From the NCBI GenBank assembly GCA_016185255.1, contig JACPNY010000025.1, forward strand, positions 1 through 52,396: DNA of 52,396 bases. Direction: 5' to 3'. Of the stretch, positions 7,543 to 45,504 are shown piece by piece. The position numbers and the translations under genes are program-made. Source of the stretch: Pseudomonadota bacterium. Its GTDB lineage: Bacteria; Pseudomonadota; Alphaproteobacteria; UBA9655. Below the pieces are notes generated by a model. It was not told the DNA's origin and did not search any database. It was given only the letters and a program-made list of their open reading frames with translations. The stretch's first letter is position 1; the number at the start of each line of letters is the position of its first letter.

Positions 7543-8091
7543 ATGAAACCTTATTTTTTTCTTAGCGCATTTGTCTTTCTTGTTGAGGGAGGCCTAGAAG
7601 CTCAGAACTATAACGCCCTTCCTCCGACCCCCTCAGAATCACCGTCTGTTACTATCCCCGCAGACGTTGTATCGTTGCTTTTGGGAAAATCAGATTACCT
7701 AAACCGAAATCCAAATCCGTCAGTCTTCGATTGTTCTGTTCTGCTTAACAAAACTTGGACCTATTCTAATGCTCAAATGTTTCTTGTTTGTGGCGAGGCT
7801 GAAACGGCCTGCATACGGTATGGTATAATTCAACAAACTCTTTTAACCCAGCAGCAAGAAAAGTCCAGCAATGAGGGTAACACCAAGGGATTCTCTACGG
7901 AAAGTCTTAAATCCGCACTTTCTGCATGTCGTGCAGAAGTGGAGTTTAAGCTTATGGGGTGTGCCACAGCTCTTCAAAGCGTAGGTGATAGTAATTCTCT
8001 CATTAATCAATCAGGGTTTGCTGGACCTACTGCTTCGCAACAGATGAAAAATTCTAGCTCTACGAAAAGTTCTAATTCTACAAAAAAATAA
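7543..8091 (+). CDS. Hypothetical secreted protein (signal peptide, Ser/Thr-rich tail)
   Basis: Hydrophobic N-terminus MKPYFFLSAFVFLVEGGLEA. No recognisable domain. Confidence 0.6.
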   Translation: MKPYFFLSAFVFLVEGGLEAQNYNALPPTPSESPSVTIPADVVSLLLGKSDYLNRNPNPSVFDCSVLLNKTWTYSNAQMFLVCGEAETACIRYGIIQQTLLTQQQEKSSNEGNTKGFSTESLKSALSACRAEVEFKLMGCATALQSVGDSNSLINQSGFAGPTASQQMKNSSSTKSSNSTKK

Positions 8092-8106: not shown

Positions 8107-8676
8107 TCAAATTCTCCAAGTGTTTTGATAAGCTTCGTATTGACTACCTGCTAGAGGCAGGATTCCATGGAAAAGCCCATCAGGGGAGTTTTGAGGTTTG
8201 AGTTCTACGACGTAAGGCCATAAACCAAATTTTTTTGTAGAAACATAAACGTCTGGTAAGAGCTTCATGATGATAAAGCTCACTTTTTTTTTCGATCCAA
8301 AAGCAACAAGCTCCTCATACAATCCTCGATAAAAATTTTGTAAAAAGACATCGACTTCAGATGTGTTGAGGAGAGGGTAGTTTGAAGAAGGCTCAAAATA
8401 AATAGTCGAACATTCCCAGACAGTGTTGTTATGGACAGTGAGCGTGGTAACAAGCTCTCCGAGATCTTCTTGAATATCAGTAATCTTTTTTTTAAGAAGA
8501 CACGCTCCCCCACATATTTTTTTGCCGCGAGCTTCTGCAATGATGAAAATGGGAGTGATTCGATTTTTCAAAGAAAGCTCAATCCCCTGAAAGAATTTCA
8601 TTTTTTCAATTATTAGCTTGATAAGTTTATTTTTGAAAATTCGTTGAGTCGATTCAATGATCTCAAACTTAAGCAT
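8107..8676 (-). CDS. Hypothetical protein with weak resemblance to LuxI/N-acyl-amino-acid-synthase (GNAT-like) fold
   Basis: ATG at 8676 (MLKFEII). The blocks ICGGACLL and VWECSTIYF are reminiscent of the G..RL and E.SR blocks of that fold, but the key Arg residues are absent. Confidence 0.45.
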   Translation of the reverse strand: MLKFEIIESTQRIFKNKLIKLIIEKMKFFQGIELSLKNRITPIFIIAEARGKKICGGACLLKKKITDIQEDLGELVTTLTVHNNTVWECSTIYFEPSSNYPLLNTSEVDVFLQNFYRGLYEELVAFGSKKKVSFIIMKLLPDVYVSTKKFGLWPYVVELKPQNSPDGLFHGILPLAGSQYEAYQNTWRI

Positions 8677-9031
8677 AGGCGCTCCTGCTACTGTTGTTAA
8701 AATCTGAGTCCGCAAAAGGCCATTTTATAGGAAGGTAGACTTTTAGAAAAAGTTGATGTATCCTCCCTACGATTGTGACCTTTTATGGGTTCTAATTTTT
8801 TTATTGAGCACCTGAGATTTCTAAAAAATAGGTTCGCAGGCACTTAGTTATTGAGAAGGTTGGGTTTAGAAATCTCCCTATCTTCTTTTTTTAGGTTAAT
8901 CTTTTTTGGTATTTTGTATATCATAAATTTTATAAATGCTAGCTTTTTTTCGCATCGTGCGATTTTAGGGTTACCACAACCGTCTTTATGGACTAATATT
9001 TATAGGAGATTGATTTTAGGTAAAGAAGCGT

Positions 9032-9508
9032 ATGACATCTGCATTAAAAGAGAAAATCATTGAACGTATGGAGGCAAAGAACCTCTCAATTGCTGAGTTA
9101 GAGAGGCGAGCCGGCCTAAGTATACACTCCGTAAGAAATATTCTTAAAGGTAGAATTAAAAAGCCAAGTGCCCAATCGCTTCAAGCTATAGCTGAGGCGT
9201 TGGAATGCTCTCTTATGGATCTTGTCAATGCCTCATCCCCATCAGGAGAGGATGCCTCCGCTCTGTCCCAACATAAGAAGATAAGCCCTCCCGTAGATTA
9301 TCCAGAACTCATGCTAGAATGTTCTAAGGCCGTCTTGACGCTTATAGGAGACTGTGACCCTAAGGCCACTGTTGATGAATATTTAGACATTGTAAAAAAG
9401 GTTTATTTTTATTCTTCAAAGGAAGAGCCACGGAAATCAGATATTAGGTTTGCTGAATGGCTTATTGAAACGCAGCTGGGTAGCAGGTGTGTTCCTGCGA
9501 AAGAGTGA
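9032..9508 (+). CDS. XRE-family helix-turn-helix transcriptional regulator
   Basis: N-terminus LKEKIIERMEAKNLSIAELERRAGLSIHSVRNILKG...SLQAIAEAL is a typical HTH_3 pattern. The C-terminal ~90 aa are unassigned. Confidence 0.75.
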   Translation: MTSALKEKIIERMEAKNLSIAELERRAGLSIHSVRNILKGRIKKPSAQSLQAIAEALECSLMDLVNASSPSGEDASALSQHKKISPPVDYPELMLECSKAVLTLIGDCDPKATVDEYLDIVKKVYFYSSKEEPRKSDIRFAEWLIETQLGSRCVPAKE

Positions 9509-9599
9509 AACAATAGTCTTTACGCTTTGAGTCTTGATGTACGAGTCCTTCCTCCAACAATTGTTCGAGTTATCCGTAAAAGGTGGTGACGGAGATATT

Positions 9600-9905
9600 A
9601 AGTAGCCATTAGGTCATCACAGGGGATGAATTCATAACCATCTTGGAATGTGCCCCTAAAATGACTTTTGGCAACTAATCATGCCCATCAAGCGTGCACC
9701 ATGATTTTTTCTGTATTTTTGATGAGCTTAAAGACCGTGAGCAAGGCACCCCTTTCGAGTGTTTGGGGCTGGGCGCTGTATTTTTCAAGGAAGAGGTCAA
9801 AAGTCTTATGGGCCTCCTCTCTGTTTTCAGCCATCCATATGTTGTGAAAATCTGCTTTGGCTTTGTTTTGGAGAGGGTTAGGAATCTTCTTTAAAACATT
9901 GGCTT
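9600..9905 (-). mobile_element. IS256 (Mutator)-family transposase C-terminal remnant, internally deleted, with stops
   Basis: The minus-strand translation reads ANVLKKIPNPLQNKAKADFHNIWMAENREEAHKTFDLFLEKY...ALLTVF. In another frame it continues LDGHD*LPKVILG, matching the conserved IS256-family tail (..DGHNQLPK.ILGVKF). Confidence 0.6.
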
Positions 9906-10070: not shown

Positions 10071-12176
10071 ATGAAATCTATAAATTATCTATTATTACTT
10101 TTTGTTACTTTATGCTTTTCTTTGGGGCCAACCTTTGCTTTTTCAGAATCTGATGAAGGTGAAGGTCACATCTTGTTGGAAGAAAAACCAACTGCTCGAG
10201 TCAAGAGAAAATCTAAGGATGAGAGCCTTGAGTTATTACAAGATTGGGTGAACTTAGGCCTTATAAAAACAGCCCCTATCGAGGTGAAGGCAGGCCAGAA
10301 ACTTAAGGTTACTTGCGACTTTGATAAAGTCACAGAACGAACTGCTATATCTTTTCTTAATTCCGCACAGAATGGTTATTATGACGGCGGAGTCACAGTT
10401 GATCCTGGTCAGGAAAGTGTTATATTTTCTTCTGTTGTTCCCCCAGACGAGACACGGTCCTGGTTAATTCTTCGTAATCCCGGGTTTGATGGAAAAACTC
10501 TCCTTCCTTTTGGTGTAAGGCTTAAGAGCGTTAGCATAGATGTGGAGCATAGTTCAAAAAATCAACTTCTTAAGCCCGTTGATTTCTTACAAGATTGGGT
10601 GAACTTAGGCCTTATAAAAACAGCCCCTATCGAGGTGAAGGCAGGCCAGAAACTTAAGGTTACTTGTGACTTTGATAAAGTCACAGAACAAACCGCTATA
10701 TCTTTCCTTAATTCCGCACAGAATGGTTATTATGACGGCGGAGTCACAGTTGATCCTGGTCAGGAAAGTGTTACATTTTCTTCTATCATCCCCCCAGACG
10801 AGACACGGTCCTGGTTAATTCTTCGGAATCCTGGGTTTGATGGAAAAACTCCTCTTCCTTTTGGTGTAAGGCTTAAGAATGTTAGCATAGATGTGGAGCA
10901 TAGTTCAAAAAATCAACTTCTTAAGCCCGTTGAGCTCCCACAAGACCTACCTAGCCTTGTAAGTGTACTGACAAGCTCTCGTATAGAATTTGAGCAAGAA
11001 TTGTCTAGTAAAGAAAACATTAACTCCGAAATGCCACTAGGCACGATCGGGCGGAAAAAACTAGGGCTTAGATTTAAAGAAAAAGCAGAGAAACGGTTGA
11101 ATTATCTTACTAATGAGCATTCCGAGAATCGGGGGGAGGGGCCAGTATCTACAGACTCTCTAATAAGTCTGCACATGCAATCTCTAATGCAGAAAAAAAA
11201 GGGTCTTAAAACAGGCGAGTTTACCACACCAGAGCTTGCTCAGGCTCTTTTGGCACGCGCAGGCATACCCTTAACAGATGTGACAGTCACGCCCATGAAG
11301 GGTGGATTTGTTAGTGGCGAGGTTTATATGATAGAGGGTTACTCTGAACAAGGAAAGAAAAGGGAAAGATTCTTCTTAAAATATCTGCGTCAATGTATGT
11401 TAGTAGACAAAGCTCGTTGTGCAGGTGAAGTACGAAATTTACAAGGGATCAAAAAACTTTTAAAAGAGAGAAAGTTAGAAGAAGCGGGCTTTTCTTTAAT
11501 TCTCCCCATATTTGAAGGCCGGTATTTCTATAAAAAAAAGGAAAAATTATTCACAATTTTACCTGCTGCAAAAGGTAGAAGTTTGACGAACATTGTTCGG
11601 TCAGATATTAAGAAAAATTCTAGCGTAGTTTTCCAAGCGTTTTATGATGTTGGTTTAGCACTCGGGACATTTCAGTCGAAGAATATTATTTTCCCAGAGA
11701 CGTTTGAGTCTATTAAACAACGATATCTTGAAGCCAATACTCTTGTTCATGGTGATTTTCATTCTGATAATATTTTCGTAAAGGCAAAAGGAAGAGTTTC
11801 TTTAATCGATATTGAGACACTTGCTTACAGTTTTGATGAAAATGCCAAACCAACAGCACCTTTAGTTTATGATATTTTTTATTTTATTCAACAAGCCCAT
11901 CGTCGCTTTGAAAAGTCTGACTTAGGAGAGATGAAAAAGTTAAAGTGGAAGATGTATACAAATTTTATCGATGGATATATTGCGGGGTTTTCTGCTGATC
12001 AGCAAAAAGGGTTACGGGCTTACTTGGAGAGTTGCTTTCATCACGCCGATGAAGTTGAGTTTGTTGATATATTCCCGAAAGTTATGGGCCATCTTGTTAC
12101 ATGGAAGAAAGCTCCTGATGATAAGTATTCGAAGCAAATTATTGGGGCTCTGTGTAGCCATCTGAGTCATCTGTAA
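10071..12176 (+). CDS. Secreted protein: signal peptide + two 117-aa tandem modules + C-terminal protein-kinase-like (APH/ChoK/ePK fold) domain
   Basis: Signal peptide MKSINYLLLLFVTLCFSLGPTFA. Kinase-like motifs are a Gly loop (GGFVSGEVY), a beta3 Lys (FFLKYL), a catalytic loop (HGDFHSDN, 11748-11771) and a metal-binding motif (LIDIE). Confidence 0.8.
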   Translation: MKSINYLLLLFVTLCFSLGPTFAFSESDEGEGHILLEEKPTARVKRKSKDESLELLQDWVNLGLIKTAPIEVKAGQKLKVTCDFDKVTERTAISFLNSAQNGYYDGGVTVDPGQESVIFSSVVPPDETRSWLILRNPGFDGKTLLPFGVRLKSVSIDVEHSSKNQLLKPVDFLQDWVNLGLIKTAPIEVKAGQKLKVTCDFDKVTEQTAISFLNSAQNGYYDGGVTVDPGQESVTFSSIIPPDETRSWLILRNPGFDGKTPLPFGVRLKNVSIDVEHSSKNQLLKPVELPQDLPSLVSVLTSSRIEFEQELSSKENINSEMPLGTIGRKKLGLRFKEKAEKRLNYLTNEHSENRGEGPVSTDSLISLHMQSLMQKKKGLKTGEFTTPELAQALLARAGIPLTDVTVTPMKGGFVSGEVYMIEGYSEQGKKRERFFLKYLRQCMLVDKARCAGEVRNLQGIKKLLKERKLEEAGFSLILPIFEGRYFYKKKEKLFTILPAAKGRSLTNIVRSDIKKNSSVVFQAFYDVGLALGTFQSKNIIFPETFESIKQRYLEANTLVHGDFHSDNIFVKAKGRVSLIDIETLAYSFDENAKPTAPLVYDIFYFIQQAHRRFEKSDLGEMKKLKWKMYTNFIDGYIAGFSADQQKGLRAYLESCFHHADEVEFVDIFPKVMGHLVTWKKAPDDKYSKQIIGALCSHLSHL
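10236..10933 (+). repeat. Direct tandem duplication, 2 x 351 bp, in frame inside CDS 10071-12176
   Basis: Unit 1 is 10236-10586 and unit 2 starts at 10587. About 17 mismatches counted by eye. Confidence 0.95.
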
Positions 12177-12193: not shown

Positions 12194-13534
12194 TTAACTG
12201 ACAATTGTTCCCGTAAGGCTATTGGCAGAGGCCTTTTCTATAATTACGTCTACACATGTTCCGAAAAGCTCCGGGGTAGTTTCGACATAAACGGATTGAA
12301 AATGAGGGGTTTTTCCTAAGATTTGACCGTCTTGTTTACCTTGACGATCCAACAGGACGGGGACCGTCTTCCCAACGCTTTTCTCATGGAAAGAAAGATG
12401 CTGCGTATTTAAAAGATCTTGAAGACGACCGAGACGCTCGGCTTTTATGTCGTCCGGAACTTGATCGTCCATCAACGCGCCAGGTGTGCCCGGACGGGGA
12501 CTATATTTAAAAGAGTAAGATTGGGAATACCCCACTTCTTGAACAAGAGATAAGGTTTTCTTGAAATCTTCTTCGGTTTCCCCTGGGAAGCCCACAATAA
12601 AATCAGAAGAAAGGGCAATGTCAGGACGATAGGTGCGCAATTTTTCAATACAGTCTAGATAGTGCTTAGCCGTATGCTTACGGTTCATGGCTTCCAAAAT
12701 TCGGTCTGAACCTGATTGGACGGGAAGATGAAGAAAAGGCATAACTTGAGGGACATCCCGATGGGCCTCCATGAGTTCCTCATCCATATCGCGCGGATGG
12801 GAGGTCATATATCGAAGTCTCTCAAGGCCTTTAAGGGAAGCTAAATACTCCATGAGTTTCCCCAAGCCCCACTCTTGTCCCGCAGGGCTTTCGCCATGAT
12901 AAGCATTAACATTTTGTCCCACAAGCGTGATTTCCTTAGCTCCTCGCTCACACAAACGTGTAGCTTCTTCCATAATGGCGCGAGCAGGTCGAGAGTACTC
13001 AGCACCCCGCGTATAGGGGACAACACAAAAGGTACAAAACTTGTCGCATCCTTCTTGAATAGCGAGGAAAGCGGACGGGCCTACATGGGTGTGGTTTTCG
13101 GGGAGATGATCAAACTTGGATTCAACAGGAAATTCCACATCCAATACTCCGCGACCTGGACCTTTCTCTTTATCTTGAGACCTGTGAGCGCGCGCAATCA
13201 TCTCAGGAAGTCGGTGATAGGTTTGGGGGCCAAGAACAATATCCACATAAGGCGCGCGACGCATAATTTCTGCCCCTTCTGCTTGCCCCATACAGCCCGC
13301 CACGGCCAAAATCATTTTGTCATCCTTATAGGGACGGATACGCCCCAGATCTGAATAGACTTTTTCTTCAGCTTTTTCTCGAATGTGACACGTATTTAAA
13401 ATAACAAGGTCTGCATGCTCTGGCGTTTCTGTAAGCTCATATCCAAGGGGCTTTAAAATATCCGCCATGCGCCCTGAATCGTAAACGTTTGCTTGGCAAC
13501 CATAGGTTTTAATATAAAGACGTTTTTGAAGCAT
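12194..13534 (-). CDS. miaB: tRNA-i6A37 methylthiotransferase MiaB
   Basis: YIKTYGCQANVYDS N-terminal cluster, radical-SAM CDKFCTFCVVPYTRG, TRAM-like C-terminus. Confidence 0.92.
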   Translation of the reverse strand: MLQKRLYIKTYGCQANVYDSGRMADILKPLGYELTETPEHADLVILNTCHIREKAEEKVYSDLGRIRPYKDDKMILAVAGCMGQAEGAEIMRRAPYVDIVLGPQTYHRLPEMIARAHRSQDKEKGPGRGVLDVEFPVESKFDHLPENHTHVGPSAFLAIQEGCDKFCTFCVVPYTRGAEYSRPARAIMEEATRLCERGAKEITLVGQNVNAYHGESPAGQEWGLGKLMEYLASLKGLERLRYMTSHPRDMDEELMEAHRDVPQVMPFLHLPVQSGSDRILEAMNRKHTAKHYLDCIEKLRTYRPDIALSSDFIVGFPGETEEDFKKTLSLVQEVGYSQSYSFKYSPRPGTPGALMDDQVPDDIKAERLGRLQDLLNTQHLSFHEKSVGKTVPVLLDRQGKQDGQILGKTPHFQSVYVETTPELFGTCVDVIIEKASANSLTGTIVS

Positions 13535-13536
13535 TT

Positions 13537-14325
13537 TTAACTCATTTGCTCTGAAAGGGGGTGGGCAAAAGCCTTTACAAATCCGTTATGTACAGCTTGA
13601 AAACTTGCTTGAGCAAGGTCTTTTCGAGAGGAAAAATCCTGGGCTTTAAAGGGAGGATGGAGATCTACAACGACTTGAACAGTCCCTAATTGAACCAGAG
13701 ACCATAGATGGGGAACTAAATCAATGTCTGGGCTAGACCAGCCACACAATTTACGCATAAATCGGGGCATAGGAAGGTAATCCCAACCCGCATAGGTTAT
13801 GGAAATAGGTTGAACCACCACATTTTTTTTGAGGGCTATGTCAAAAAAAGAGCTTCCAAAAGGGAGGACGCGACAGCCGTCGGATGTGGTTCCTTCTGGA
13901 AAGAGAATAAGGCTTTCTCCTTTATCGATATAGTGGATAAGTTTGTCAGCCCCATCTGCAATAGCCGTGCGGCTCCTGTCAATGTATACGGATCCTTGAA
14001 TTGTTGAAAGCCACCCTATAACAGGCCATTTGGCAACTTCCTGTTTGGCGACAAATCGTGCAGGAATAAATGTACCTAACACCATGATATCTACATAGCT
14101 TGAATGATTTGCAACAAACAGAGTCGGTTTTATAGGAGAAAGGTTTCCTTTAATAATAAGCTGATGACCGATAGATCTTCGCCAACTCGACAATAAAAAA
14201 CGGCCCCACCAAAATCCTAAGGGTTGATGAACTTTACTCAAAACCCAATGAATGGGGCCATAGATTAGGCACACTAGACCCAAAAGAAGAAAGCGCCAGA
14301 GAGCAAGTCCATAGGCCCGTGGCAT
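13537..14325 (-). CDS. olsA: Lyso-ornithine lipid O-acyltransferase (PlsC-family acyltransferase)
   Basis: NHSSYVD (HxxxxD) and FPEGT motifs. The ATG at 14325 shares one base with the olsB TGA (TGATG). Confidence 0.75.
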   Translation of the reverse strand: MPRAYGLALWRFLLLGLVCLIYGPIHWVLSKVHQPLGFWWGRFLLSSWRRSIGHQLIIKGNLSPIKPTLFVANHSSYVDIMVLGTFIPARFVAKQEVAKWPVIGWLSTIQGSVYIDRSRTAIADGADKLIHYIDKGESLILFPEGTTSDGCRVLPFGSSFFDIALKKNVVVQPISITYAGWDYLPMPRFMRKLCGWSSPDIDLVPHLWSLVQLGTVQVVVDLHPPFKAQDFSSRKDLAQASFQAVHNGFVKAFAHPLSEQMS

Positions 14326-15161
14326 CAGATTGCCTCCAGATGAGTGGAAGAGTGGGTATATCTTTGAGAGTACCGTTCCGTCATCATTTCCTTTTTTACA
14401 ATGATACACACATCAATGGAATTGAATTGGGTGTCGATGAAGGCTCCGTCTCCCACAAACCCCCCCATACGTAAGTATCCCTTAATCAAAGGAGGGAGCT
14501 GACGCAGCGCTTCTTTTGAATTGACTTGAGAGGCAGGAAGTAAATCCATCTTTTGGTAATGAATAGGAAGCGCTTTTGCTCTTAAGTCCGGGGGAGCTAA
14601 GTGGTTATGATAAAGATAGGAGAGCGCTTGTTTATACATCGATACATCCGTGCCGCTAAAGCTCCCACATCCAAAACAAAGGTTGACTTGATTAAGGCGG
14701 ATGTAGGCTCCAATTCCTCGCCACAAAAGCTGCATGGTAGGTTTTGTTCTATAGTTTTTATGGACGCAAGAGCGACCTAGTTCCATAATTTGACCTGGGG
14801 AAGAGACAAGCTTGCTTACATCAAATTCGGTAGCCGTGTAGTACCCTCCATAGCGACGAGCGGCTTCTCGTAGCATAAACCGGTATGTTCCAACAATTTT
14901 GTTGCATGCGTGATCAATTACCAACAGAACATCACAAAAATCATCGATAGGGGCAACATCTTGCTTTAAAAGAGCCACAGTTTCATCGGGCTGAGCCCCG
15001 CATTCCTCATAAAACACTTCATAGCGCAAGAGCTGAGCGGCTTTTACTTCCTCTTCCGATTGAGCAAGGCGTACTTCGAGAGACCCTGCTTTTAATAAAG
15101 GAAGCGGCTTTGAAAAACGATCAAAAGAAGGTGTGAGAAGCTCGGGCATCATAGTGTTCAA
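14325..15161 (-). CDS. olsB: Ornithine N-acyltransferase (hemolysin-like GNAT)
   Basis: LEVRLAQSEEEVKAAQLLRYEVFYEE ... GTYRFML pattern. Lies directly upstream of the PlsC-type gene, as in alphaproteobacterial olsBA. The true start may be the ATG at 15152. Confidence 0.78.
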   Translation of the reverse strand: MNTMMPELLTPSFDRFSKPLPLLKAGSLEVRLAQSEEEVKAAQLLRYEVFYEECGAQPDETVALLKQDVAPIDDFCDVLLVIDHACNKIVGTYRFMLREAARRYGGYYTATEFDVSKLVSSPGQIMELGRSCVHKNYRTKPTMQLLWRGIGAYIRLNQVNLCFGCGSFSGTDVSMYKQALSYLYHNHLAPPDLRAKALPIHYQKMDLLPASQVNSKEALRQLPPLIKGYLRMGGFVGDGAFIDTQFNSIDVCIIVKKEMMTERYSQRYTHSSTHLEAI

Positions 15162-15598
15162 AATTTTTTCCCAATTCCTTTTATAGGAATTCCATATAAT
15201 TCAATGCGGTGGCCAACGAGGCGATATCCTAAGTTTTTTGCAATTTCCTTTTGAAGAGCTTCAATTCGTTCATCATGAAACTCAATGATTTGACCCGTAT
15301 GGGTATCAATCAAGTGGTGATGATGTTCGTTTGAGGCTTCTTCATACCGCGACTTTCCATCTCCAAAGTCATGGCGGTTCAAGATATGTGCTTCTTCAAA
15401 TAAACGCAAGGTTCTGTAAACTGTCGCAAGGCTAATTTTAGAATCAAGCTGACTCACCCGCTTATAAAGAGCGTCCACATCTGGATGATCTTGGGATTCA
15501 GATAAAACACGCACAATCACACGTCTTTGTTCTGTCATCCGCAGCCCTTTTACTTGGCAAAGCTGTTCCAAATGGGAAAGAGTCATAACTCCCTTCAA
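15158..15598 (-). CDS. Fur-family regulator, Irr-like (HHHH motif, no CxxC pairs)
   Basis: Winged-helix region RMTEQRRVIVRVL...ATVYRTLRLFEE. EHHHHLIDTHTGQIIEF lacks the Fur structural cysteines. 4-nt overlap with the olsB ORF. Confidence 0.85.
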   Translation of the reverse strand: MKGVMTLSHLEQLCQVKGLRMTEQRRVIVRVLSESQDHPDVDALYKRVSQLDSKISLATVYRTLRLFEEAHILNRHDFGDGKSRYEEASNEHHHHLIDTHTGQIIEFHDERIEALQKEIAKNLGYRLVGHRIELYGIPIKGIGKKF

Positions 15599-15647
15599 TA
15601 AAACACCGATGCCGCCGCAACGTCAGCATCGGTGCTTAAAATAGGTT

Positions 15648-16076
15648 TTAAGCTGCGATATCACGACGACGGTCGCGACGAGTTCCCAGCCCAATATCTT
15701 TTGCTAAGCTACTGCGACGTTTTGCGTAATTTGGAGCGACCATAGGATAGTCCGCTGATAACCCCCACCGCTCCCGATATTGGTCAGGTGTCATATTGTA
15801 AGAGGTCTTTAAGTGGCGCTTAAGCATTTTTAAACGGCGACCATCTTCAAGACAGACGATATAATCAGGTTGGATAGAATCTTCGATAGAAACAACAGGA
15901 TCTGGACGATCGTGCAGCAAGAATGAACGTCCGGAACTCACATTACATAAACTGCGATGAACTTGTTGAATAAATGTAGGTAATTCTGAAGCATCTATTT
16001 CGTTATTTGCAACATAAGAAGCAACGACTTCGGCGACCAATGCCATAATGTCTAGGGGGTCATTTTTGTCTGTCAT
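15648..16076 (-). CDS. MucR/Ros-family zinc-finger transcriptional regulator
   Basis: LKRHLKTSYNMTPDQYRERWGLSADYPMVAPNYAKRRSSLAKDIGLG is the family signature. Confidence 0.88.
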   Translation of the reverse strand: MTDKNDPLDIMALVAEVVASYVANNEIDASELPTFIQQVHRSLCNVSSGRSFLLHDRPDPVVSIEDSIQPDYIVCLEDGRRLKMLKRHLKTSYNMTPDQYRERWGLSADYPMVAPNYAKRRSSLAKDIGLGTRRDRRRDIAA

Positions 16077-17829: not shown

Positions 17830-18077
17830 TACTTAGTCTATATTATTATTTAGCACATTTTTCGGGAGGAATAAAATTTTTTGATTGGCCATCTGAATTA
17901 ACCCTTCCCCTTTTTTTTAAAGTATGTATCATTGAACTGATCTTTTAAGAAAGATCTTAATAAACACAGGAGATTATCATGCATCGACATCATCATTGCC
18001 CCACAATTTTAGAACGATCCCAATTAAAACTACGTAATCGAATGAGGAACCCAAAATGTACTTTTTTAACACCCTGA

Positions 18078-18920
18078 TCCAAGCCTTTCGCCCCCACTAA
18101 AATTTCCATTCTCCAACTTGTCGATCACCCCGCTTTAAATGCAACGCGAGAAGGTTTTCTCGAAGAGCTGAATAAACTTGGATATAAAGCAGGAGAAAAT
18201 CTTATTTTGGATTTTCAATCCGCCCAAGGAAACCCCTCTTTAGCTGCTCAAATTGCGCAAAAATTCGTGTCCAATAAGCCCGACGTTATTGTGGCCATCC
18301 CAACCATTGCAGCTCAAGCTGCCATGTCGGCAACAAAAGACACGGATATCCCGGTTGTCTTTAGTTCTGTGACCGACCCCCTTTCCGCAAAGCTGGTCAC
18401 AAGTTTAGAGGCGCCAACAGGGAATGTCACGGGTGTGTCTAATTTTGTGCCCGTTGAACCCCAATTCAAACTCTTTAAACGTGTTCTACCCACCCTAAAA
18501 ACCTTGGGGATTGTGTACAACCCTGGAGAAGCGAATTCCACAGCTCTGAACGCCATGATGGAAAAAGTAGCCTCGTCCTTTGATTTGACGTTAGTTTTTG
18601 CAACGGCTTCCAAAAGTAGTGAGGTGTTGGGCGCTACACAAAGCCTTTGTGGTAAGGCAGACGCGGTTTTTGTTAACAATGACAACACGGCCTTAAGCGC
18701 TTTCAAAAGTGTGGTGAAAGCCGCGCAAGCTTGCGGCATTCCTGCTTTTGTGAGTGATATTGATATTGCAGATCAAGGCGCCCTTGCGGCTCTGGGTCCT
18801 GACCAGCGAGAAGTAGGACGTCAAACGGCCCGGATGGTAGATTTTATTTTAAAAAACCCTGAAGCGCCTCTTCCTGCCGTTGAGTTTCCGGATAAAACGG
18901 AAGAGTTTGTGAAGGAGTAG
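18078..18920 (+). pseudogene. ABC-transporter substrate-binding protein (ABC_sub_bind type) lacking a signal peptide and in-frame start
   Basis: The frame is open from 18078 (KISILQLVDHPALNATREGFLEELNKLGY...), but the first start codon is a TTG at 18207. A possible N-terminus (MYFFNTLIQAF, ATG at 18055) lies in another frame and stops at 18099. No permease or ATPase gene is nearby. Confidence 0.6.
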
Positions 18921-18953: not shown

Positions 18954-19965
18954 CTATGGAAAAGCGCAGGGAGAACAGGTTTTGGCTTGCTGACTTTGGG
19001 CTTCTGCTTCTTCAAGGGCTGTGATAATGTGGGCTTTGGAATTTAAAAATTCTTGATAGGAAAAGGTCACAAAGAGAATGACCCAAGGAGTAAGGTCTCC
19101 TGAAAGCTTCATACTTTGTTGATCTAAAGCTCTCGCAATTATTTCCGATTTCAATAGATTTGAGAAGGTAAACATGGGCCATCTCAGACCTTGCCAAATG
19201 GTTTTGTTGACAAGAGCTCTCCCCACACGCCCATTGCCGTCTCTAAAAGGATGGATAGACTCAAAGTAAAAATAGACAATGGCAGCGCGCACGAGACTTG
19301 GGATTTTAACGGTACCGTGGAGTGGATCTGTTTGATTAAACCAAGCTATAAATTTGCTTATTTCTTCATTTATCTTTGTGGGAGGAGGAGGTCTGTACCT
19401 AATCCGTCTCCACCATCTGATCTTGTTCCCAGTCTTTCACATAAATTTGTTGGGTGCGCCAGCGACCCACCTTAATCTGATCGCGTTGAAGCGGGTCCAT
19501 GATCACTGTCTCGTGATATTTAAAAAGCTGCTCTTGAGAAAGAGGCTCTTTAAAGGTTTGGCTGATTAAAAAGATCAAGCGTGCGAGGCCTAAGTCACGG
19601 CTTTTTTTAAGGTCATTGTCCTTTATGTCATGTTCAAGAAGAGAGAAAAGCTCATTGAGATCAATTTCATTGTCGAGTTTTAAGATTTTAATGGCGTCTA
19701 AAACAATAATTTTTCGCATGACCTCCCGTTGGAGAGAAGGAGACAGATTATAAAATCGCTGAGAAAGGGCGGCGGTTTCTCTGTCATAAGCCTCAAGGGT
19801 GGTTTGAACCTCGGAAAGATCATACTGAAAATTTGGCCAACAGGGAGATTGCCAAAAATAGAGGGTTTCTGCTGCTTCAGGCTTAATATAATCGTCTTTA
19901 TCAAAAGCCCAAAGAACATCGGATAAGGAAATGAATATGCCAAAAAAAATAAAAGTGCGTTTCAT
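18954..19965 (-). pseudogene. Fic-domain protein with N-terminal signal peptide, split by one frameshift between 19399 and 19436
   Basis: Fic motif HPFRDGNGRVGR at 19218-19253. The upstream ORF ends ...KVGRWRTQQIYV...ETD*. The conserved continuation RYRPPPPTKINEEISKFIAWFNQ is in the adjacent frame. Confidence 0.75.
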
Positions 19966-20427: not shown

Positions 20428-22446
20428 ATGGCGAACGCTAAACCTTTTTTAGACGTACAAATGCCTGGTGGTACGTCCTTTCTCCTGGCTGAGTTTCAGG
20501 GCACAGAACGGCTATCTTCTCTTTTTGAATATAATCTTATGTTGTTTGCCGAAAGTCGGACGGTGGACTTTAGTACGCTTATGGGGCAAAGCGCTACCGT
20601 TTCCATTAGTGTGGGATCTGAGAAACGCACCTATAATGGGATTATTGGGCATTTTGAGCAAGAAGGAACGCCTTTTACGCCTCTTAAGTCTGTTTCAACA
20701 ACGTATCGAGCCATTCTTTATCCCAAACTTTGGCTTTTAACCATGTCCGGCCAGTGCCGTATTTTTCAAAATAAATCCACCATGGATATCATTAAGACTG
20801 TGTTAGATGAGGCCCAAATTCCCTATTCCAATCAGGTGACGACGTGTGGGCAGGATCCTCTGGACTTTTGTGTTCAATACGATGAAACGAACTTTAATTT
20901 CATCTCTCGTTTGATGGAAAGAGAAGGCATTCTTTATTTCTTTCAGCAAGAGCAAGACAATCACAAGCTTGTGTTAGCAGATTCACCAGATTCTCATCAG
21001 CCTTGCCCGAATGCGGCAACGGCAAGCTTTCACGATAGTTCTCTTTATGACGAGATGATGTTACAGGTGGGGTCCTGCTTTATTGCCCAGCGCCTGGTTC
21101 CTCAAAGTAATACCTTGAATAGTTATAATTATTTGACTCCTAAAACCCCTTTAAAATCCGTTGCAACGGGAAACTCTGATGCAGGGGGAGGGAGTATTAC
21201 GCGTTATCGTCAAATCTATGAGCAACAAAGCCGGGGAGATGCTCTTTCGAAGATACAACTCCAAGCGGAAGAACTCCCCCAGAAAATGGTGGAGGGTGTG
21301 TCAACGATTCCGTTTTTTCTTGCGGGATATAAATTTACGTTGAAAGACCACCCGCGAGATGACGCCAACATTGATTATGTTCTTTATGAAGTCGTTCATG
21401 AGGCCTATTTGGAGCCAGAGGGAAAAAGAGAACATATCTATAAGAATAGCTATCGCGCTTTTCCAGCAACCATACCTTTTAAGCCTCCTCAACTTACGCC
21501 AAAGCCCCGTATTTATAGTACTCAGACGGCTAAAGTAACAGGAAAGCAGGGAGAAGAAATCTATACGGAAGAATATGGGCGCATTAAGGTCAAATTCCAT
21601 TGGGATCCATCGGAGGCGGAAGATGATACAACGTCCTGTTGGATTCGGGTGGCCACCTTATGGGCGGGACAAACATGGGGAAGCTTATTTACTCCCCGGG
21701 TTGGGCAAGAGGTGGTGGTCTCCTTTATTGATGGAAACCCCGATTATCCTTTGGTGGTAGGATCTGTGTACAACGGAGACAATAAGCCCCCCTATTTGCC
21801 TGACGAGCCCACAAAATCAACAATTAAAACTCAAAGTAGTAAAGCAGGAGATTCCGGTACTGCAGGATTTAATGAACTTCGATTCGAAGACAAGCAAGGA
21901 TCCGAAGAAGTTTATATGCATGCCCAAAAGGATTTCAATATTAAGATTGAAAATGATCAGAGTATTACTCTTGTGGGGGGAAGTCGTACGGTTGCTCTTC
22001 AAGCGCAGCAAGGGGATAGTGGTGGCGGCGGAGAAGGAGGCGGCGGTGGGCAGGGCAATGATAGCTTAACCTTAACAAATGGGAATAAATCCTTAAAAAT
22101 TGATAAGGGAGATTATTCGATTACACTGTCAGATGGAAATATCAGCATCACCTGTAGCCAAGGAAACGTTACTTTTGATATTCAGGGAGCTGTGTCCATC
22201 CAGTGTTCAGACGACTTTAGTGTTAATGCAGGAGGCAACGTCAGCATTACTGCAGGCGGTACGCTTGAAGCAACGGCGGGAGGAGATGGAACTATTTCTG
22301 CAGGCGGTGCGATTGAAGTAACAGGGGGAGGAGAAGCAACCTTCACTGCAGGAGCGAATGGAACGATTTCGGCAGGGGCTGCTCTTGAAATCCAAGCGAC
22401 GGGAACGGTGTCAGTAGCAGGACTCACAATAGAACTAAATGGATAA
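20428..22446 (+). CDS. vgrG: Type VI secretion spike protein VgrG
   Basis: N-terminus FLLAEFQGTERLSSLFEYNLMLFAE...LMGQSATVSI. gp27/gp5 core present (RVATLWAGQTWGSLFTPRVGQEVVVSFIDGNPDYPLVVGSVYN). The C-terminus is a beta-helix of repeats. Confidence 0.92.
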   Translation: MANAKPFLDVQMPGGTSFLLAEFQGTERLSSLFEYNLMLFAESRTVDFSTLMGQSATVSISVGSEKRTYNGIIGHFEQEGTPFTPLKSVSTTYRAILYPKLWLLTMSGQCRIFQNKSTMDIIKTVLDEAQIPYSNQVTTCGQDPLDFCVQYDETNFNFISRLMEREGILYFFQQEQDNHKLVLADSPDSHQPCPNAATASFHDSSLYDEMMLQVGSCFIAQRLVPQSNTLNSYNYLTPKTPLKSVATGNSDAGGGSITRYRQIYEQQSRGDALSKIQLQAEELPQKMVEGVSTIPFFLAGYKFTLKDHPRDDANIDYVLYEVVHEAYLEPEGKREHIYKNSYRAFPATIPFKPPQLTPKPRIYSTQTAKVTGKQGEEIYTEEYGRIKVKFHWDPSEAEDDTTSCWIRVATLWAGQTWGSLFTPRVGQEVVVSFIDGNPDYPLVVGSVYNGDNKPPYLPDEPTKSTIKTQSSKAGDSGTAGFNELRFEDKQGSEEVYMHAQKDFNIKIENDQSITLVGGSRTVALQAQQGDSGGGGEGGGGGQGNDSLTLTNGNKSLKIDKGDYSITLSDGNISITCSQGNVTFDIQGAVSIQCSDDFSVNAGGNVSITAGGTLEATAGGDGTISAGGAIEVTGGGEATFTAGANGTISAGAALEIQATGTVSVAGLTIELNG

Positions 22447-23131
22447 AAGCCCTATGGACGAGCAGTCTGATCAAGAAACGTTAAACGATGAAGAGCCTAC
22501 AGAGGCTCAAGAATCCCCTCAGCCAGGAGAGCGCCGCTTTATAGGTCATGTTATTGATAATAAAAGACATGGCGTGGTGGAAAAGTATGATGAAAATGCT
22601 AATCTCGTCTCTGCGCATCCATTCGAAAAAGGACGCCTTCATGGAGAGTCTCGCCGTTATGATAAGTCTCAGCGGTTAAAAGAAAAAATAACCTACCATG
22701 AAGGAGTAGCTCATGGGCCAGCGGAATTTTACAAAAGGGGAACTCCTTCGCTCTCCACCCATTTTCATGAGGGAAAGCAACATGGAGAAACTACTTTTTA
22801 TGATGACGGAGGAGCCGTTCGGGCGCGTGTTCAATATGAAAAGGGAGTCAAACACGGCACTTCAATCGGCTATGATCTTTTAGGACGTGTGAAACGTGTT
22901 TCCCATTATCAGAATGGCCTGTTAGATGGTCCTACCATGAGTTACTATCCCAGCGGCGCCCTTCTTGAATCAGGGCTATATGTGCAGGGAAAACGTCATG
23001 GTGAGTTTATCTCCTATTATGAAAACGGAGGAGCGCGCCAAGTCCTCGTCTTTGACATGGGGCGCCTTGTGCGAAAACCTCAATTTTATGATTCTCACGG
23101 CAATCCCATGTCTTCGGGGATTGAAAGATGA
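22439..23131 (+). CDS. MORN-variant (YwqK-type) repeat protein with acidic N-terminal tail
   Basis: Seven ~23-aa repeats of the form G..HG....Y...G. 8-nt overlap with the vgrG stop. Confidence 0.85.
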   Translation: MDKSPMDEQSDQETLNDEEPTEAQESPQPGERRFIGHVIDNKRHGVVEKYDENANLVSAHPFEKGRLHGESRRYDKSQRLKEKITYHEGVAHGPAEFYKRGTPSLSTHFHEGKQHGETTFYDDGGAVRARVQYEKGVKHGTSIGYDLLGRVKRVSHYQNGLLDGPTMSYYPSGALLESGLYVQGKRHGEFISYYENGGARQVLVFDMGRLVRKPQFYDSHGNPMSSGIER

Positions 23132-23520
23132 GTCTTGCGGTTGTTGGAGAGCTTTCCGCCATTCAGTGTCTTTTTGGGGCATCGCCAACACCCTTAATTG
23201 TGCTCCCTGATCGAACGATTACAGCAGAACTTTCGCTGATGGGCAACATTTCGGATATGATTCCTTTTGTTAATATCCTAACCTTTGTAGAATGTGTATC
23301 GCTTGCTAATCCGCAAGTGATTATTGCAACAGCAGCTGCTATGGGAGTTTTAACGCCTATGCCGTGCGAACCAATTGTCGTTGATCCCTGGGTTTCTGAA
23401 GCGCTGGATGTGTTCGTTGAGATCGTGCCAGCTCTTGATCAAACTTCTATTGTGATGTGTATTTGGGCAGGGGTCATTCATGTCGATGAGCCCGGGAATG
23501 TGACGGTGATGGTTCCTTGA
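23128..23520 (+). CDS. DUF4280 (PAAR-like) domain protein
   Basis: VVGELSAIQCLFGASPTPLIVLP ... IPFVNILTFVECVSLANPQVIIATAAAMGVLTPMPCEP ... CIWAGVIHVDEPGN fits the DUF4280 consensus. ATGA overlap with the MORN gene. Confidence 0.85.
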   Translation: MSLAVVGELSAIQCLFGASPTPLIVLPDRTITAELSLMGNISDMIPFVNILTFVECVSLANPQVIIATAAAMGVLTPMPCEPIVVDPWVSEALDVFVEIVPALDQTSIVMCIWAGVIHVDEPGNVTVMVP

Positions 23521-33780: not shown

Positions 33781-34320
33781 ATGCACAATAAATTTCTCCG
33801 GACATCGGTGATCGCGTTGAATTTAGGCGTCGCGATAATTGCAGGCGACACAACTTGGTCAGGGAAGGTTTCCGCGGCAACGCTGGATGCGAGTGATGGA
33901 ACTCTCGCACTGTTCCATGTGAAGGATGCGCCCTTCGGTGGGTACGTGAAGTTGGGAGTGAGTCTGCGGCCGAGTGGGGCAGGCCGGTCTTATCCGTATG
34001 GGCTTGAAGTGGCTGGGAGCACGCTCATGGGTTCACAGCAGGTGGCGTTCGCGAGCTGGACTTTGGAGCACGGGGGGGTCTCCTGGAGAGACTTCGTGGC
34101 TGCGGATGGGGAGGTTACAATGAAAATTCAGTGGCCTGGTCAGGGGCCTTACCCTTTTGAGAACATCTGGTGGGTCGCCGCAAAGGACATACCCGCTCCA
34201 GACGACAAGGGAATGGAAACGCTGGCCTACCTGAATACTTTAAAATACTCACTGGCTTGCACCGACACGCACCCAGACACTGCTGAACCGTCTTGTGACC
34301 TTACGGTAACCAGAGAGTGA
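33781..34320 (+). CDS. Hypothetical secreted protein, compositionally foreign (GC-rich)
   Basis: Signal peptide MHNKFLRTSVIALNLGVAIIAG. GC is visibly well above the window background. No recognisable domain. Confidence 0.6.
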   Translation: MHNKFLRTSVIALNLGVAIIAGDTTWSGKVSAATLDASDGTLALFHVKDAPFGGYVKLGVSLRPSGAGRSYPYGLEVAGSTLMGSQQVAFASWTLEHGGVSWRDFVAADGEVTMKIQWPGQGPYPFENIWWVAAKDIPAPDDKGMETLAYLNTLKYSLACTDTHPDTAEPSCDLTVTRE

Positions 34321-36650: not shown

Positions 36651-36799
36651 TTCACTGATAAAATGTTGTATTAAGGGCAAAAGATTTTTGGTTGCTAGTG
36701 TCAGAGGGGATAAGACACCATCATCAACAAGAGTGATCTTGAATATTCTTGAAAAAGAGACTATATTAAAGATGTCAGGGAAACCTTGACTATAGTGAT

Positions 36800-37105
36800 A
36801 AACGTCTTTCAGAATAGGCGTTGCGGACCCGGGGGCGGAACCCGGCACCTCCACCATCAGTATTATGGGGGTGAATCAGGATCGACGTGCGTAGTAAAGG
36901 GTAGATTTTCACTCGGCATGGTACCACCGTTATCGGGCTAAACAATGTAAATGCAAAAGCAAATACATATGATCGTATGGTAGCTAAGTTTGCAAACGTA
37001 GACCACGCTAACTTCAATGGGATCCAGGTTGCTGCGTCTGCAGCTGCTTAATCCTGTAAGCGATCGCGGTTTGAGGGGCGCCGGGCAACAGAAGCCCCTC
37101 ACTGG
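36800..37105 (+). ncRNA. ssrA: Two-piece (circularly permuted) tmRNA gene; outer boundaries approximate
   Basis: The acceptor piece has a T-arm (CCGGG GGCGGAA CCCGG) followed by CACCTCC-A-CCA, ending at 36855. The coding piece starts GGGGGTGAATCAGGATCGACG at 36866. Acceptor pairing includes G3:U70. The tag frame ends ...VAASAAA TAA at 37048-37050. Confidence 0.8.
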
Positions 37106-37154
37106 TTTTGGCAAAAGAAGGAAGATACCATTGGGCGGATTCAATTACGAAGAA

Positions 37155-37577
37155 ATGGTTCAAGAAGGCTTAAGGAGTGTCGTCCGCGAAACCCTTGAGA
37201 TAACAGCCCTTGAAGGCCTTCCTGGAGCGCATCATTTTTATATCGCCTTTAAAACAGATTATCCTGGCGTCCAGCTTCCAGAGTATTTGAGGGAACGCCA
37301 TCCCGAAGAAATGACAATCGTTGTTCAGCATCAATATTGGGGACTTGAAGTGGATGAAAATGGTTTTTTCATCAGCCTTAGTTTTAGCGAATCCCAAGAA
37401 CGTATTTATGTGCCCTTCCATGCTCTTTTAAGCTTTATGGACCCTTATGCAAAGTTTGGCCTTCAATTTGTGCCGCCGCCTGTGTTTGAATTGGAAGAAA
37501 CACCCGTCCAGAAGCTTCCCTCTTCTTCGGATGCGACAGGAAACATTGTGTCTCTGGATACCTTTCGGAAGAAGTAG
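37155..37577 (+). CDS. sspB: Alpha-type SspB (ClpXP adaptor for ssrA-tagged proteins)
   Basis: GLPGAHHFYIAFKTDYPGVQLP...EEMTIVVQHQYWGLEVDENGFFISLSF...VPFHALLSFMDPYAKFGLQF. The upstream part of the track ORF (37017-) overlaps ssrA and is not coding. Confidence 0.8.
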   Translation: MVQEGLRSVVRETLEITALEGLPGAHHFYIAFKTDYPGVQLPEYLRERHPEEMTIVVQHQYWGLEVDENGFFISLSFSESQERIYVPFHALLSFMDPYAKFGLQFVPPPVFELEETPVQKLPSSSDATGNIVSLDTFRKK

Positions 37578-44532: not shown

Positions 44533-45504
44533 TTATTTATTGAACATGCTAAGAAGTTTTATGAAGTGTCCTCCGCGGTCTTTAAACCCAGGGAGTTCTT
44601 TTGCCTGACCCAATAATTGGATTAATTTATTCGTCCCAAGATCAGCCGTTTGATTTTCAACAGAGGGAAGTGAAACCCTTATCATATCTTCGAAATCTTG
44701 CTGTTGATCCTCATCAAAAATAAGGTGCAACGTTGCAATTGCTTGATTTGAGTATCCATCATTATAAGAAACAACTGACCAAAAACTTTGACCTATAACC
44801 TCAGAAAGACCAGAAAGACCAACAGGTTGAGGAGAAATGACTTGCATACACCCCCCAATATGTACACAGGGTTTCTGATGATCACCCGTGCATTCAGGAT
44901 GAATCACACTTTGGACACTTGAAACTGTGCTCATTGCACACTTCTCTTCATCTTTTATTTCCAGAGTTTGAGGAGACTCTTTGCGATCAATATAATAAAG
45001 CTTTACTTGTTGAGAATCACTATAAAGTACCCTAATTTTTGGATTTCTAATAGCAAAGTAGGCCCCTTTCTGGGGGGCTAAAGGATCAGTCCCATACTGT
45101 GGATAAAAGCCATGATGATACTCATCGAACTTTAGTGGGCAAGTTTGTCCCACTACAAAAATTTTAATCCCATTAGGCCCAACGTTATCCTCCTTGAATC
45201 CTTCCTGAATAGGAGAAGGGAGATTTGAAGCGTATGCGAGAGGAATATGCATAAAAAGAGAGGATGTCTGCAATATACTAGAATGATCCTTTGGCATATA
45301 GCTCTGAATTACTGGGGCTTTTGGCAAAACACCCCCGTAAAGATTAGAAAAACCTTTGTTTTGTTCATAAGCTCCATTTTTTGGATAGATTTGAACAGTT
45401 TTTTTATCAGCAATTACTTCCCAGTCTGAGTCATCCATAGAATGGACGGGGGTGAAGCTCATCATTGTTATGAGCACAAAAAGACTTAAAGATATTTTTT
45501 TCAT
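44533..45504 (-). CDS. Hypothetical secreted protein
   Basis: Signal peptide MKKISLSLFVLITMMSFTPVHS. No recognisable domain. Confidence 0.65.
   Translation of the reverse strand: MKKISLSLFVLITMMSFTPVHSMDDSDWEVIADKKTVQIYPKNGAYEQNKGFSNLYGGVLPKAPVIQSYMPKDHSSILQTSSLFMHIPLAYASNLPSPIQEGFKEDNVGPNGIKIFVVGQTCPLKFDEYHHGFYPQYGTDPLAPQKGAYFAIRNPKIRVLYSDSQQVKLYYIDRKESPQTLEIKDEEKCAMSTVSSVQSVIHPECTGDHQKPCVHIGGCMQVISPQPVGLSGLSEVIGQSFWSVVSYNDGYSNQAIATLHLIFDEDQQQDFEDMIRVSLPSVENQTADLGTNKLIQLLGQAKELPGFKDRGGHFIKLLSMFNK

Follow-up and report, generated by a model that had tools for sequence, protein, structure and literature searches.

The stretch of DNA analysed here, hereafter the window, spans 52,396 nucleotides (nt) of contig JACPNY010000025.1, from the assembly of an alphaproteobacterium resembling symbionts of protists. 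It hosts three adjoining genes on the forward strand, encoding a VgrG spike protein, a repeat protein of the MORN_2 (YwqK) family and a DUF4280 protein. On sequence comparison these are homologous, gene for gene, to vgrG3, tseF and PA2375 of the H3 type VI secretion system (T6SS) of Pseudomonas aeruginosa. Because it matches this set, the locus is a new example of a known, poorly understood arrangement, and neither an orphan nor a new system. With somewhat more confidence than doubt, it is read as an intact and conserved spike operon of a dispersed T6SS, in which the MORN protein would be a non-enzymatic partner bound to the tip and would probably leave with it.

The vgrG (tssI) gene (20428..22446, + strand) encodes a spike trimer protein of 672 amino acids (aa). 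The product matches TIGR03361 with 536 bits (cut-off 186, E=8e-161), and features the domains Phage_GPD (residues 26-326), Phage_base_V (380-448) and Gp5_trimer_C (464-523). A Gly-rich insert is found near residues 537-555. The protein has no extra C-terminal or effector domain and terminates in an ordinary blunt beta-helix strand; profile hidden Markov models (HMMs) hence agree with an earlier interpretation of the DNA made from its letters alone (the sequence-only reading), in which the first open reading frame (ORF) was called a canonical VgrG lacking a toxin extension. The orthologue found in the closest relative (locus L001) is 80% identical. No C-terminal signature of VgrG tracks the presence of the MORN partner; all related spikes share the blunt beta-helix end. 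The third gene (23128..23520, + strand) encodes 130 aa matching positions 6-108 of the 109 of PF14107 with 69.6 bits (gathering score 26.3), and is the bare DUF4280 cone gene that it had been taken for. Four conserved metal-binding cysteines are a trait of DUF4280 PAAR-like cone proteins (Lays et al. 2016), and the P. aeruginosa protein has its four at the positions aligned with C14, C56, C80 and C111 of the window protein. A sequence search of the PDB with the DUF4280 protein gave no match.

The three genes are tightly packed. The vgrG stop codon TAA is located at 22444-22446, and the ORF of the TseF-like MORN_2 gene (22439..23131, + strand, 230 aa) opens with an ATG at 22439, which results in an overlap of 8 nt. 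A second ATG is found at 22454 (residue M6), in an invariant column of the alignment, and corresponds to the start of most orthologues; the first junction could therefore be a gap of 7 nt. The vgrG and MORN genes are tightly packed whichever start holds. At the second junction stop and start codons overlap in the sequence ATGA (23128..23131, + strand). This is found in the window and in 15 close relatives, and is replaced by a 3-nt gap in 13 Burkholderiaceae loci. Coordinates and junction sequences are those of the three overlapping same-strand ORFs initially described, and the tight coupling then proposed is borne out by the junctions and by the retention of ATGA in relatives. The ilvA gene begins 15 nt past the DUF4280 stop codon, so that the slot downstream of the DUF4280 gene is empty in the window. 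Scans with promoter and terminator consensus sequences gave no result above shuffled expectation.

The middle protein matches MORN_2 (PF07661) with 44.3 bits (gathering score 29.6). Its description as a MORN-variant repeat protein is therefore correct, while the count of exactly seven repeats is not fixed, since the structural model gives seven to eight. In this AlphaFold2 model (mean predicted local distance difference test, pLDDT, of 90) an acidic, disordered N-terminus of about 30 residues precedes 16 strands, forming 8 hairpins, at residues 32-217. The best Foldseek matches of the model are MORN1, junctophilin and radial-spoke MORN proteins. These are protein- or lipid-binding scaffolds and not enzymes, and the MORN fold of the window protein has no catalytic domain. 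The sole match of the MORN profile in a PDB sequence search was the MORN domain of SET7/9. VgrG-linked MORN proteins differ at their C-terminal ends. Those of Burkholderiaceae, and some others, share a conserved ending '…(L/F)EKWV(R/K)G', and TseF ends with the Trp-rich tail 'RWRWWWIRL' (locus L086, 8935-9471). Proteins of the window clade have neither the EKWVRG motif nor the Trp-rich tail, and feature the acidic disordered N-terminal extension instead. Only part of the MORN_2 family is linked to VgrG; the distant homologues P0013, P0016 and P0019 sit in unrelated contexts, associated neither to T6SS nor to toxin genes, and tell nothing of the function.

The kinship to P. aeruginosa emerged from a tblastn search of PLSDB with a Paraburkholderia MORN protein, which identified the P. 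aeruginosa record NZ_CP137515.1 (L086). The record is denominated a plasmid, yet bears the chromosomal H3-T6SS end. Genes are found there in the order tssF, tssG, tssH, a hypothetical protein, an M91 peptidase, vgrG, a 178-aa 'YwqK family antitoxin' and DUF4280, and the DUF4280 gene (9494-9889) lies on the strand opposite to tseF. The 178-aa protein is taken as TseF/PA2374 because its length and position match those of the published protein. MORN_2 and DUF4280 domains were confirmed by Pfam in the Pseudomonas proteins. Similarity extends to all three products. The window VgrG is 34% identical to P. aeruginosa VgrG3 (E=3e-128), the MORN protein is 28% identical to TseF by BLASTP (E=1e-16; hhalign probability 99.7%), and the DUF4280 protein is 47% identical over its full length to the one encoded beside tseF (E=8e-31). 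At the sequence level, the homology of the window MORN protein to TseF is certain. Word-indexed protein searches missed Pseudomonas TseF, first with one MORN protein as query and then with a profile of 13 sequences.

TseF carries MORN motifs, is encoded beside vgrG3, pulls down VgrG3 and VgrG1b, and is released in an H3-dependent manner (PMC5379069). PA2375 has been described as PAAR-like, and all strains share tseF as a core gene (PMC9846239). As in the window, three families adjoin at the P. aeruginosa H3-T6SS spike end, no toxin is fused, and the MORN gene is located immediately 3' of vgrG. The two loci also differ. TseF has 178 aa, whereas the window MORN protein has 230 aa and two to three extra repeats. 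The P. aeruginosa locus adjoins the core cluster and has the DUF4280 gene on the opposite strand, whereas in the window the three genes share a strand, overlap, and sit by themselves in a housekeeping neighbourhood.

The same arrangement has been described elsewhere. The T6SS-b (i4a) of P. phymatum includes the VgrG Bphy_5985, the 'YwqK family antitoxin' Bphy_5986 and the 'PAAR-like' Bphy_5987 (PMC8356804), with order, strand and tight spacing of the triad as in the window. The triad is there inserted between clpV and tssK in a single cluster, and the MORN protein ends with '…EKWVRG', a motif lacking in the window clade. Paraburkholderia and Trinickia loci reproduce the published P. phymatum layout, including the downstream solute-binding protein, symporters and racemase. 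Since the order vgrG, YwqK/MORN, PAAR-like is on record for P. aeruginosa H3, P. fluorescens F3 and P. phymatum T6SS-b, the suggestion that the MORN protein may represent a new adaptor class does not hold. Relatives of the window VgrG are found in T6SS-b/H3-like clusters, and from these only the system is assigned, provisionally, to the group 4a/i4a subtype.

To see how widespread the triad is, the window VgrG was scanned against one genome per species. The scan yielded 80 loci, 76 of which have enough downstream sequence; MORN and DUF4280 genes were called therein by tblastn and by HMMs built from the matches. MORN and DUF4280 genes follow vgrG in 46 of the 76 usable loci, each from a different species, and in all 46 the DUF4280 gene is co-directional and tightly coupled. 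The MORN gene of the window, immediately 3' of a VgrG3-type vgrG and beside a DUF4280 gene, thus has the same context at 46 loci. The remaining loci have a MORN gene only (7), a DUF4280 gene only (2) or neither (21). The co-occurrence of the MORN and DUF4280 genes is marked (odds ratio 69, p=8e-11, over the 76 VgrG loci with kinship ignored). In related VgrGs lacking a MORN partner the slot hosts DUF4280 alone (L039, L042), a DUF2169–pentapeptide protein (L064) or nothing. Paracaedibacter and Odyssella loci feature a MORN gene by vgrG without an adjacent DUF4280 gene.

Elsewhere the triad is found among core T6SS genes. Complete clusters are found in Trinickia and Paraburkholderia, in the order tssB-tssC-hcp-tssE-tssF-tssG-clpV-vgrG-MORN-DUF4280-…-tssK-tssL. 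In Acidobacteria the triad follows tssG, and in one alphaproteobacterial metagenome-assembled genome (MAG; locus L023) it follows tssF-tssG-clpV. About 20 close alphaproteobacterial MAGs host the triad, with VgrG proteins 51-80% identical to that of the window. In about 17 of these the triad is flanked, as in the window, by an ABC substrate-binding gene and/or ilvA, and is inherited vertically, to judge from these shared flanking genes. Ratios of nonsynonymous to synonymous substitution rates (dN/dS) calculated against L001 are 0.118 for vgrG, 0.117 for the MORN gene and 0.073 for the DUF4280 gene, and 0.122 for the housekeeping neighbour ilvA. As the values equal that of ilvA, the module is maintained and not decaying. 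With dN/dS at 0.07-0.12, a decaying orphan module has been rejected.

These data bear on the reading of the middle gene as an immunity gene. Homologues are named 'toxin-antitoxin system YwqK family antitoxin', and George et al. and Midha et al., writing on endosymbionts, read YwqK as immunity. The MORN protein would accordingly be an immunity protein or antitoxin countering a toxin associated with VgrG, or a remnant persisting once the toxin had been lost, the latter being the alternative entertained in the sequence-only reading. One relative, L003, carries a gene for a protein with a YoeB-like toxin domain after DUF4280, as expected under this interpretation. A YwqJK-type pair would place a cognate toxin gene, with an LXG/deaminase or another toxin domain, beside the YwqK gene. 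Neither the window nor most of the 46 triad loci, however, have a toxin domain in VgrG, in DUF4280 or in the neighbours. The MORN gene is constant while the downstream content varies, and is conserved with vgrG across phyla. Its dN/dS of 0.117 is that of vgrG and ilvA, unlike those of fast-diversifying or decaying immunity genes. The sole characterised homologue is not an immunity protein, and no curated antitoxin family scored above threshold when the window MORN protein was scanned with NCBIfam. Lacking a toxin partner, constant in its position and under selection as strong as that on VgrG, the gene gives no support to the immunity reading, which is very improbable; the immunity relic has been rejected for the absence of a toxin partner and the constancy of the gene among varying neighbours.

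Genes following the triad were also inspected. In L003 the gene located directly after DUF4280 (13178-15850, + strand) encodes 890 aa, with a signal-like sequence at the N-terminus and a YoeB-like RNase toxin domain at the C-terminus, and is followed by a 133-aa gene on the opposite strand. Possibly the slot after the triad is a variable one, and the 890-aa protein a polymorphic toxin placed in it. In L023 (MAG 43-37) a 384-aa SPOR-domain protein and a 180-aa lipoprotein-like protein are encoded after DUF4280 (13434-15130). Homologues of the latter are found just upstream of tssK in Burkholderiaceae clusters, and the protein may be TssJ.

A plausible sequence of events can be outlined for the preferred reading, that of a partner carried at the tip. 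VgrG would form the trimeric spike, and the DUF4280 protein, with its four-cysteine metal site, is predicted to cap the blunt beta-helix end as a PAAR-like cone. Translational coupling would ensure that the MORN protein, a proposed beta-solenoid scaffold without enzymatic activity, is produced together with the cone. By analogy with the published TseF–VgrG3 interaction, this scaffold would bind the VgrG/DUF4280 tip, and would most likely be expelled with it upon sheath contraction, as a passenger or co-tip protein, and not as a toxin or immunity protein. Enzymatic effectors would be encoded elsewhere, or in the variable slot downstream of DUF4280. Loading of the MORN protein on the spike was already a working hypothesis of the sequence-only reading, and gains from the published binding of the homologue TseF to VgrG3 and from its H3-T6SS-dependent release (PMC5379069). 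For the window protein itself we infer from TseF the binding to VgrG, the T6SS-dependent release, and expulsion in preference to retention.

Several observations weigh against the preferred reading. Secretion of TseF in H3 mutants is lowered, not abolished (PMC5379069), and a 2025 review regards the activity of TseF as contentious. Some MORN_2 proteins with no link to VgrG score nearly as well against the profile; similarity being partly repeat-driven, the orthology of the MORN protein to TseF rests largely on the VgrG/DUF4280 context. The Trp-rich C-terminal tail of TseF is absent from the window protein. A three-way complex is not obligatory, because at seven loci the MORN gene lacks an adjacent DUF4280 gene, and at two others DUF4280 occurs with no MORN gene. 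A co-fold of concatenated MORN and DUF4280 sequences was uninformative, as alignment depth was lacking and the DUF4280 half was modelled at pLDDT <50. The T6SS core of this genome is not seen in the 52 kb at hand.

In the main rival reading, the MORN protein would instead be retained in the cytoplasm, as a chaperone or adaptor keeping the DUF4280 cone and/or the VgrG tip competent for assembly, much as DUF2169 does for DUF4150/PIPY. In VgrG–DUF2169–DUF4150 (PIPY) tips an accessory gene similarly lies between vgrG and a non-canonical cone gene, with which it strictly co-occurs, and the middle gene encodes a proven chaperone (PMC11883445). The related VgrG of L064 has DUF2169 and pentapeptide repeats in that very slot. 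A chaperone would also fit with genes for MORN and DUF4280 that are translationally coupled at 16 close loci and separated by a few nt at most elsewhere, with the core-like conservation across phyla, with a selection on MORN matching that on VgrG, and with a scaffold fold lacking an enzyme domain. The parallel concerns the layout: DUF2169 is unrelated to MORN_2 and DUF4150 to DUF4280, a chaperone role is proven for DUF2169 only, and neither DUF2169 nor DUF4150 was detected by Pfam in the window triad. Retention is at variance with the presence of TseF in supernatants and with its direct binding to VgrG3. Also against it stand the MORN genes found by VgrG without an adjacent DUF4280, as in Paracaedibacter, Odyssella and others, the DUF4280 genes following VgrG with no MORN gene, as in L039 and L042, and the location of the P. 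aeruginosa DUF4280 gene on the opposite strand. We regard retention in the cytoplasm as rather unlikely for the window protein.

At the Wenzhouxiangella locus L064 (12168-15961) VgrG is followed by the DUF2169–pentapeptide (TagAB-like) protein, and then by an ORF that looks pentapeptide-repeat-like. This is an alternative non-canonical tip-chaperone arrangement in the same slot. A further comparison is offered by the Francisella IglG–IglF pair, where a four-cysteine DUF4280 PAAR-like cone recruits a partner protein. The window DUF4280 protein matches IglG weakly. IglG binds IglF via an N-terminal helix extension, which is missing in the bare 130-aa window protein, and belongs to a different T6SS subtype; IglF, compared by description alone, is not described as a MORN protein in the IglG–IglF source.

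Homology and an identical gene context might suggest that the window protein acts exactly as proposed for TseF, which is said to bind vesicles loaded with the Pseudomonas quinolone signal (PQS) complexed to Fe(III), and to dock them to siderophore receptors (PMC5379069). Binding to PQS or outer-membrane vesicles and to the receptors FptA/OprF would be expected of a protein acting in this way. Alphaproteobacteria, Burkholderiaceae and Acidobacteria all carry the triad, although PQS is a quinolone of Pseudomonas; because of this spread, a PQS/iron role is unlikely as the general function of the family. The window protein, moreover, lacks the tail, and has two to three extra repeats and the acidic N-terminal extension, and the mechanism has been called contentious for TseF itself. 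An iron-scavenging role of this kind is most unlikely in the window.

The vgrG–MORN–DUF4280 arrangement carries three incompatible labels in the literature, being reported as antitoxin/immunity, as iron-uptake effector or as hypothetical protein. Acidobacteria, Burkholderiaceae and protist symbionts nonetheless all conserve the triad, with a selection that equals in strength the one acting on the spike, and cross-phylum conservation and strong selection together suggest a general, PQS-independent role at the spike tip. It may tentatively be proposed that TseF and its MORN relatives are neither Pseudomonas-specific iron effectors nor antitoxins, and that they represent a phylum-spanning, near-core accessory of VgrG–DUF4280 tips, serving as tip-assembly chaperone or as co-tip scaffold, in a manner comparable to DUF2169 with PIPY cones. 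The value of the locus, in itself ordinary for its lineage, is that it reveals the TseF-type MORN protein as a conserved cross-phylum companion of VgrG–DUF4280 spikes.

Many MAGs encode relatives of the window YidC protein, 70-89% identical, including one on a complete chromosome of 1.46 Mb (OY969900.1). The nearest named organism by YidC is Ca. Bealeia paramacronuclearis (61%), which lives in Paramecium and branches early within the Holosporaceae. Almost all Holosporineae genomes retain the T6SS, the secreted products of which are not known (PMC11909080). Its genes are reported to be dispersed over at least four separate loci, including [ywqK-vgrG] (PMC8163844). Such loci, described in Bodocaedibacter, Paracaedibacter and Caedimonas and in diplonemid endosymbionts, resemble that of the window in that vgrG and the YwqK/MORN gene stand alone in reduced alphaproteobacterial genomes, with the other T6SS genes elsewhere. 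The Holosporineae papers mention no DUF4280 gene, whereas the window clade has one. Since Holosporineae T6SS genes are scattered, a stand-alone vgrG–MORN locus is the expected state, and the term orphan, applied to the module in the sequence-only reading, is misleading; the dispersal of the system, the recurrence of the triad at the same position in about 17 of the MAGs carrying it and the strong purifying selection all speak against it.

Comparison of the window by tblastn to TssB, C, E, F, G, K, L, Hcp and ClpV proteins from related loci revealed no T6SS core gene. Pfam scans of all larger window ORFs similarly detected no T6SS core gene and no toxin domain, the matches being to housekeeping genes. 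Both results agree with the previously reported absence of sheath, Hcp, baseplate and ClpV genes from the remaining 50 kb, and Pfam analysis of the triad and its neighbours is likewise in accord with the reported absence of a fused or adjacent toxin domain. A main cluster of group 4a/i4a would have core genes tssA-M adjacent and a TssB/TssC phylogeny within i4a; no core gene was found in the window, nor within ±10 kb of the locus in close relatives. Core genes are presumably located elsewhere in the genome.

The Holosporineae T6SS is thought to be central to host interaction, and the MORN protein is the most conserved candidate for what it delivers. If MORN proteins are indeed accessories of the tip, it would be, in Holosporineae symbionts, the only conserved molecule that the spike brings to the host. 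The earlier proposal that the module is aimed at eukaryotic membranes has no evidence in its favour; the triad is found also in free-living soil Burkholderiaceae and Acidobacteria.

A frameshifted Fic/DOC gene, overlooked in the sequence-only reading, is located directly upstream of vgrG on the minus strand (18954-19965). It is split into a DUF4172 ORF (19399-19965) and a Fic ORF (18954-19292), in which the HPFxDGNGR motif is intact, and is probably a pseudogene by now, or affected by a sequencing error. The gene is part of a 1.5-kb stretch separating the ABC substrate-binding gene from vgrG. It is probably an insertion, because this interval is much shorter, 110-280 bp, in most close relatives. 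The ABC substrate-binding gene has itself lost its N-terminus (about 18056-18210). Relatives encode about 300 aa with a signal peptide; in the window residues 1-12 are found in one frame and residues 29-303 in another, which indicates a frameshift or a deletion in the signal-peptide region.

The stretch is otherwise made of housekeeping genes. No Pfam match was found for the window ORFs at 7543-8091, 8107-8715, 33781-34320 and 44533-45504, and a 701-aa ORF (10071-12176, + strand) gave a sub-threshold kinase-like (APH) match alone. A two-piece tmRNA of the alpha type, found at 36735-37103, marks the window as alphaproteobacterial. It is directly followed by the gene for SspB, the adaptor recognising SsrA tags, and the two overlap by ORF coordinates (36735-37577).

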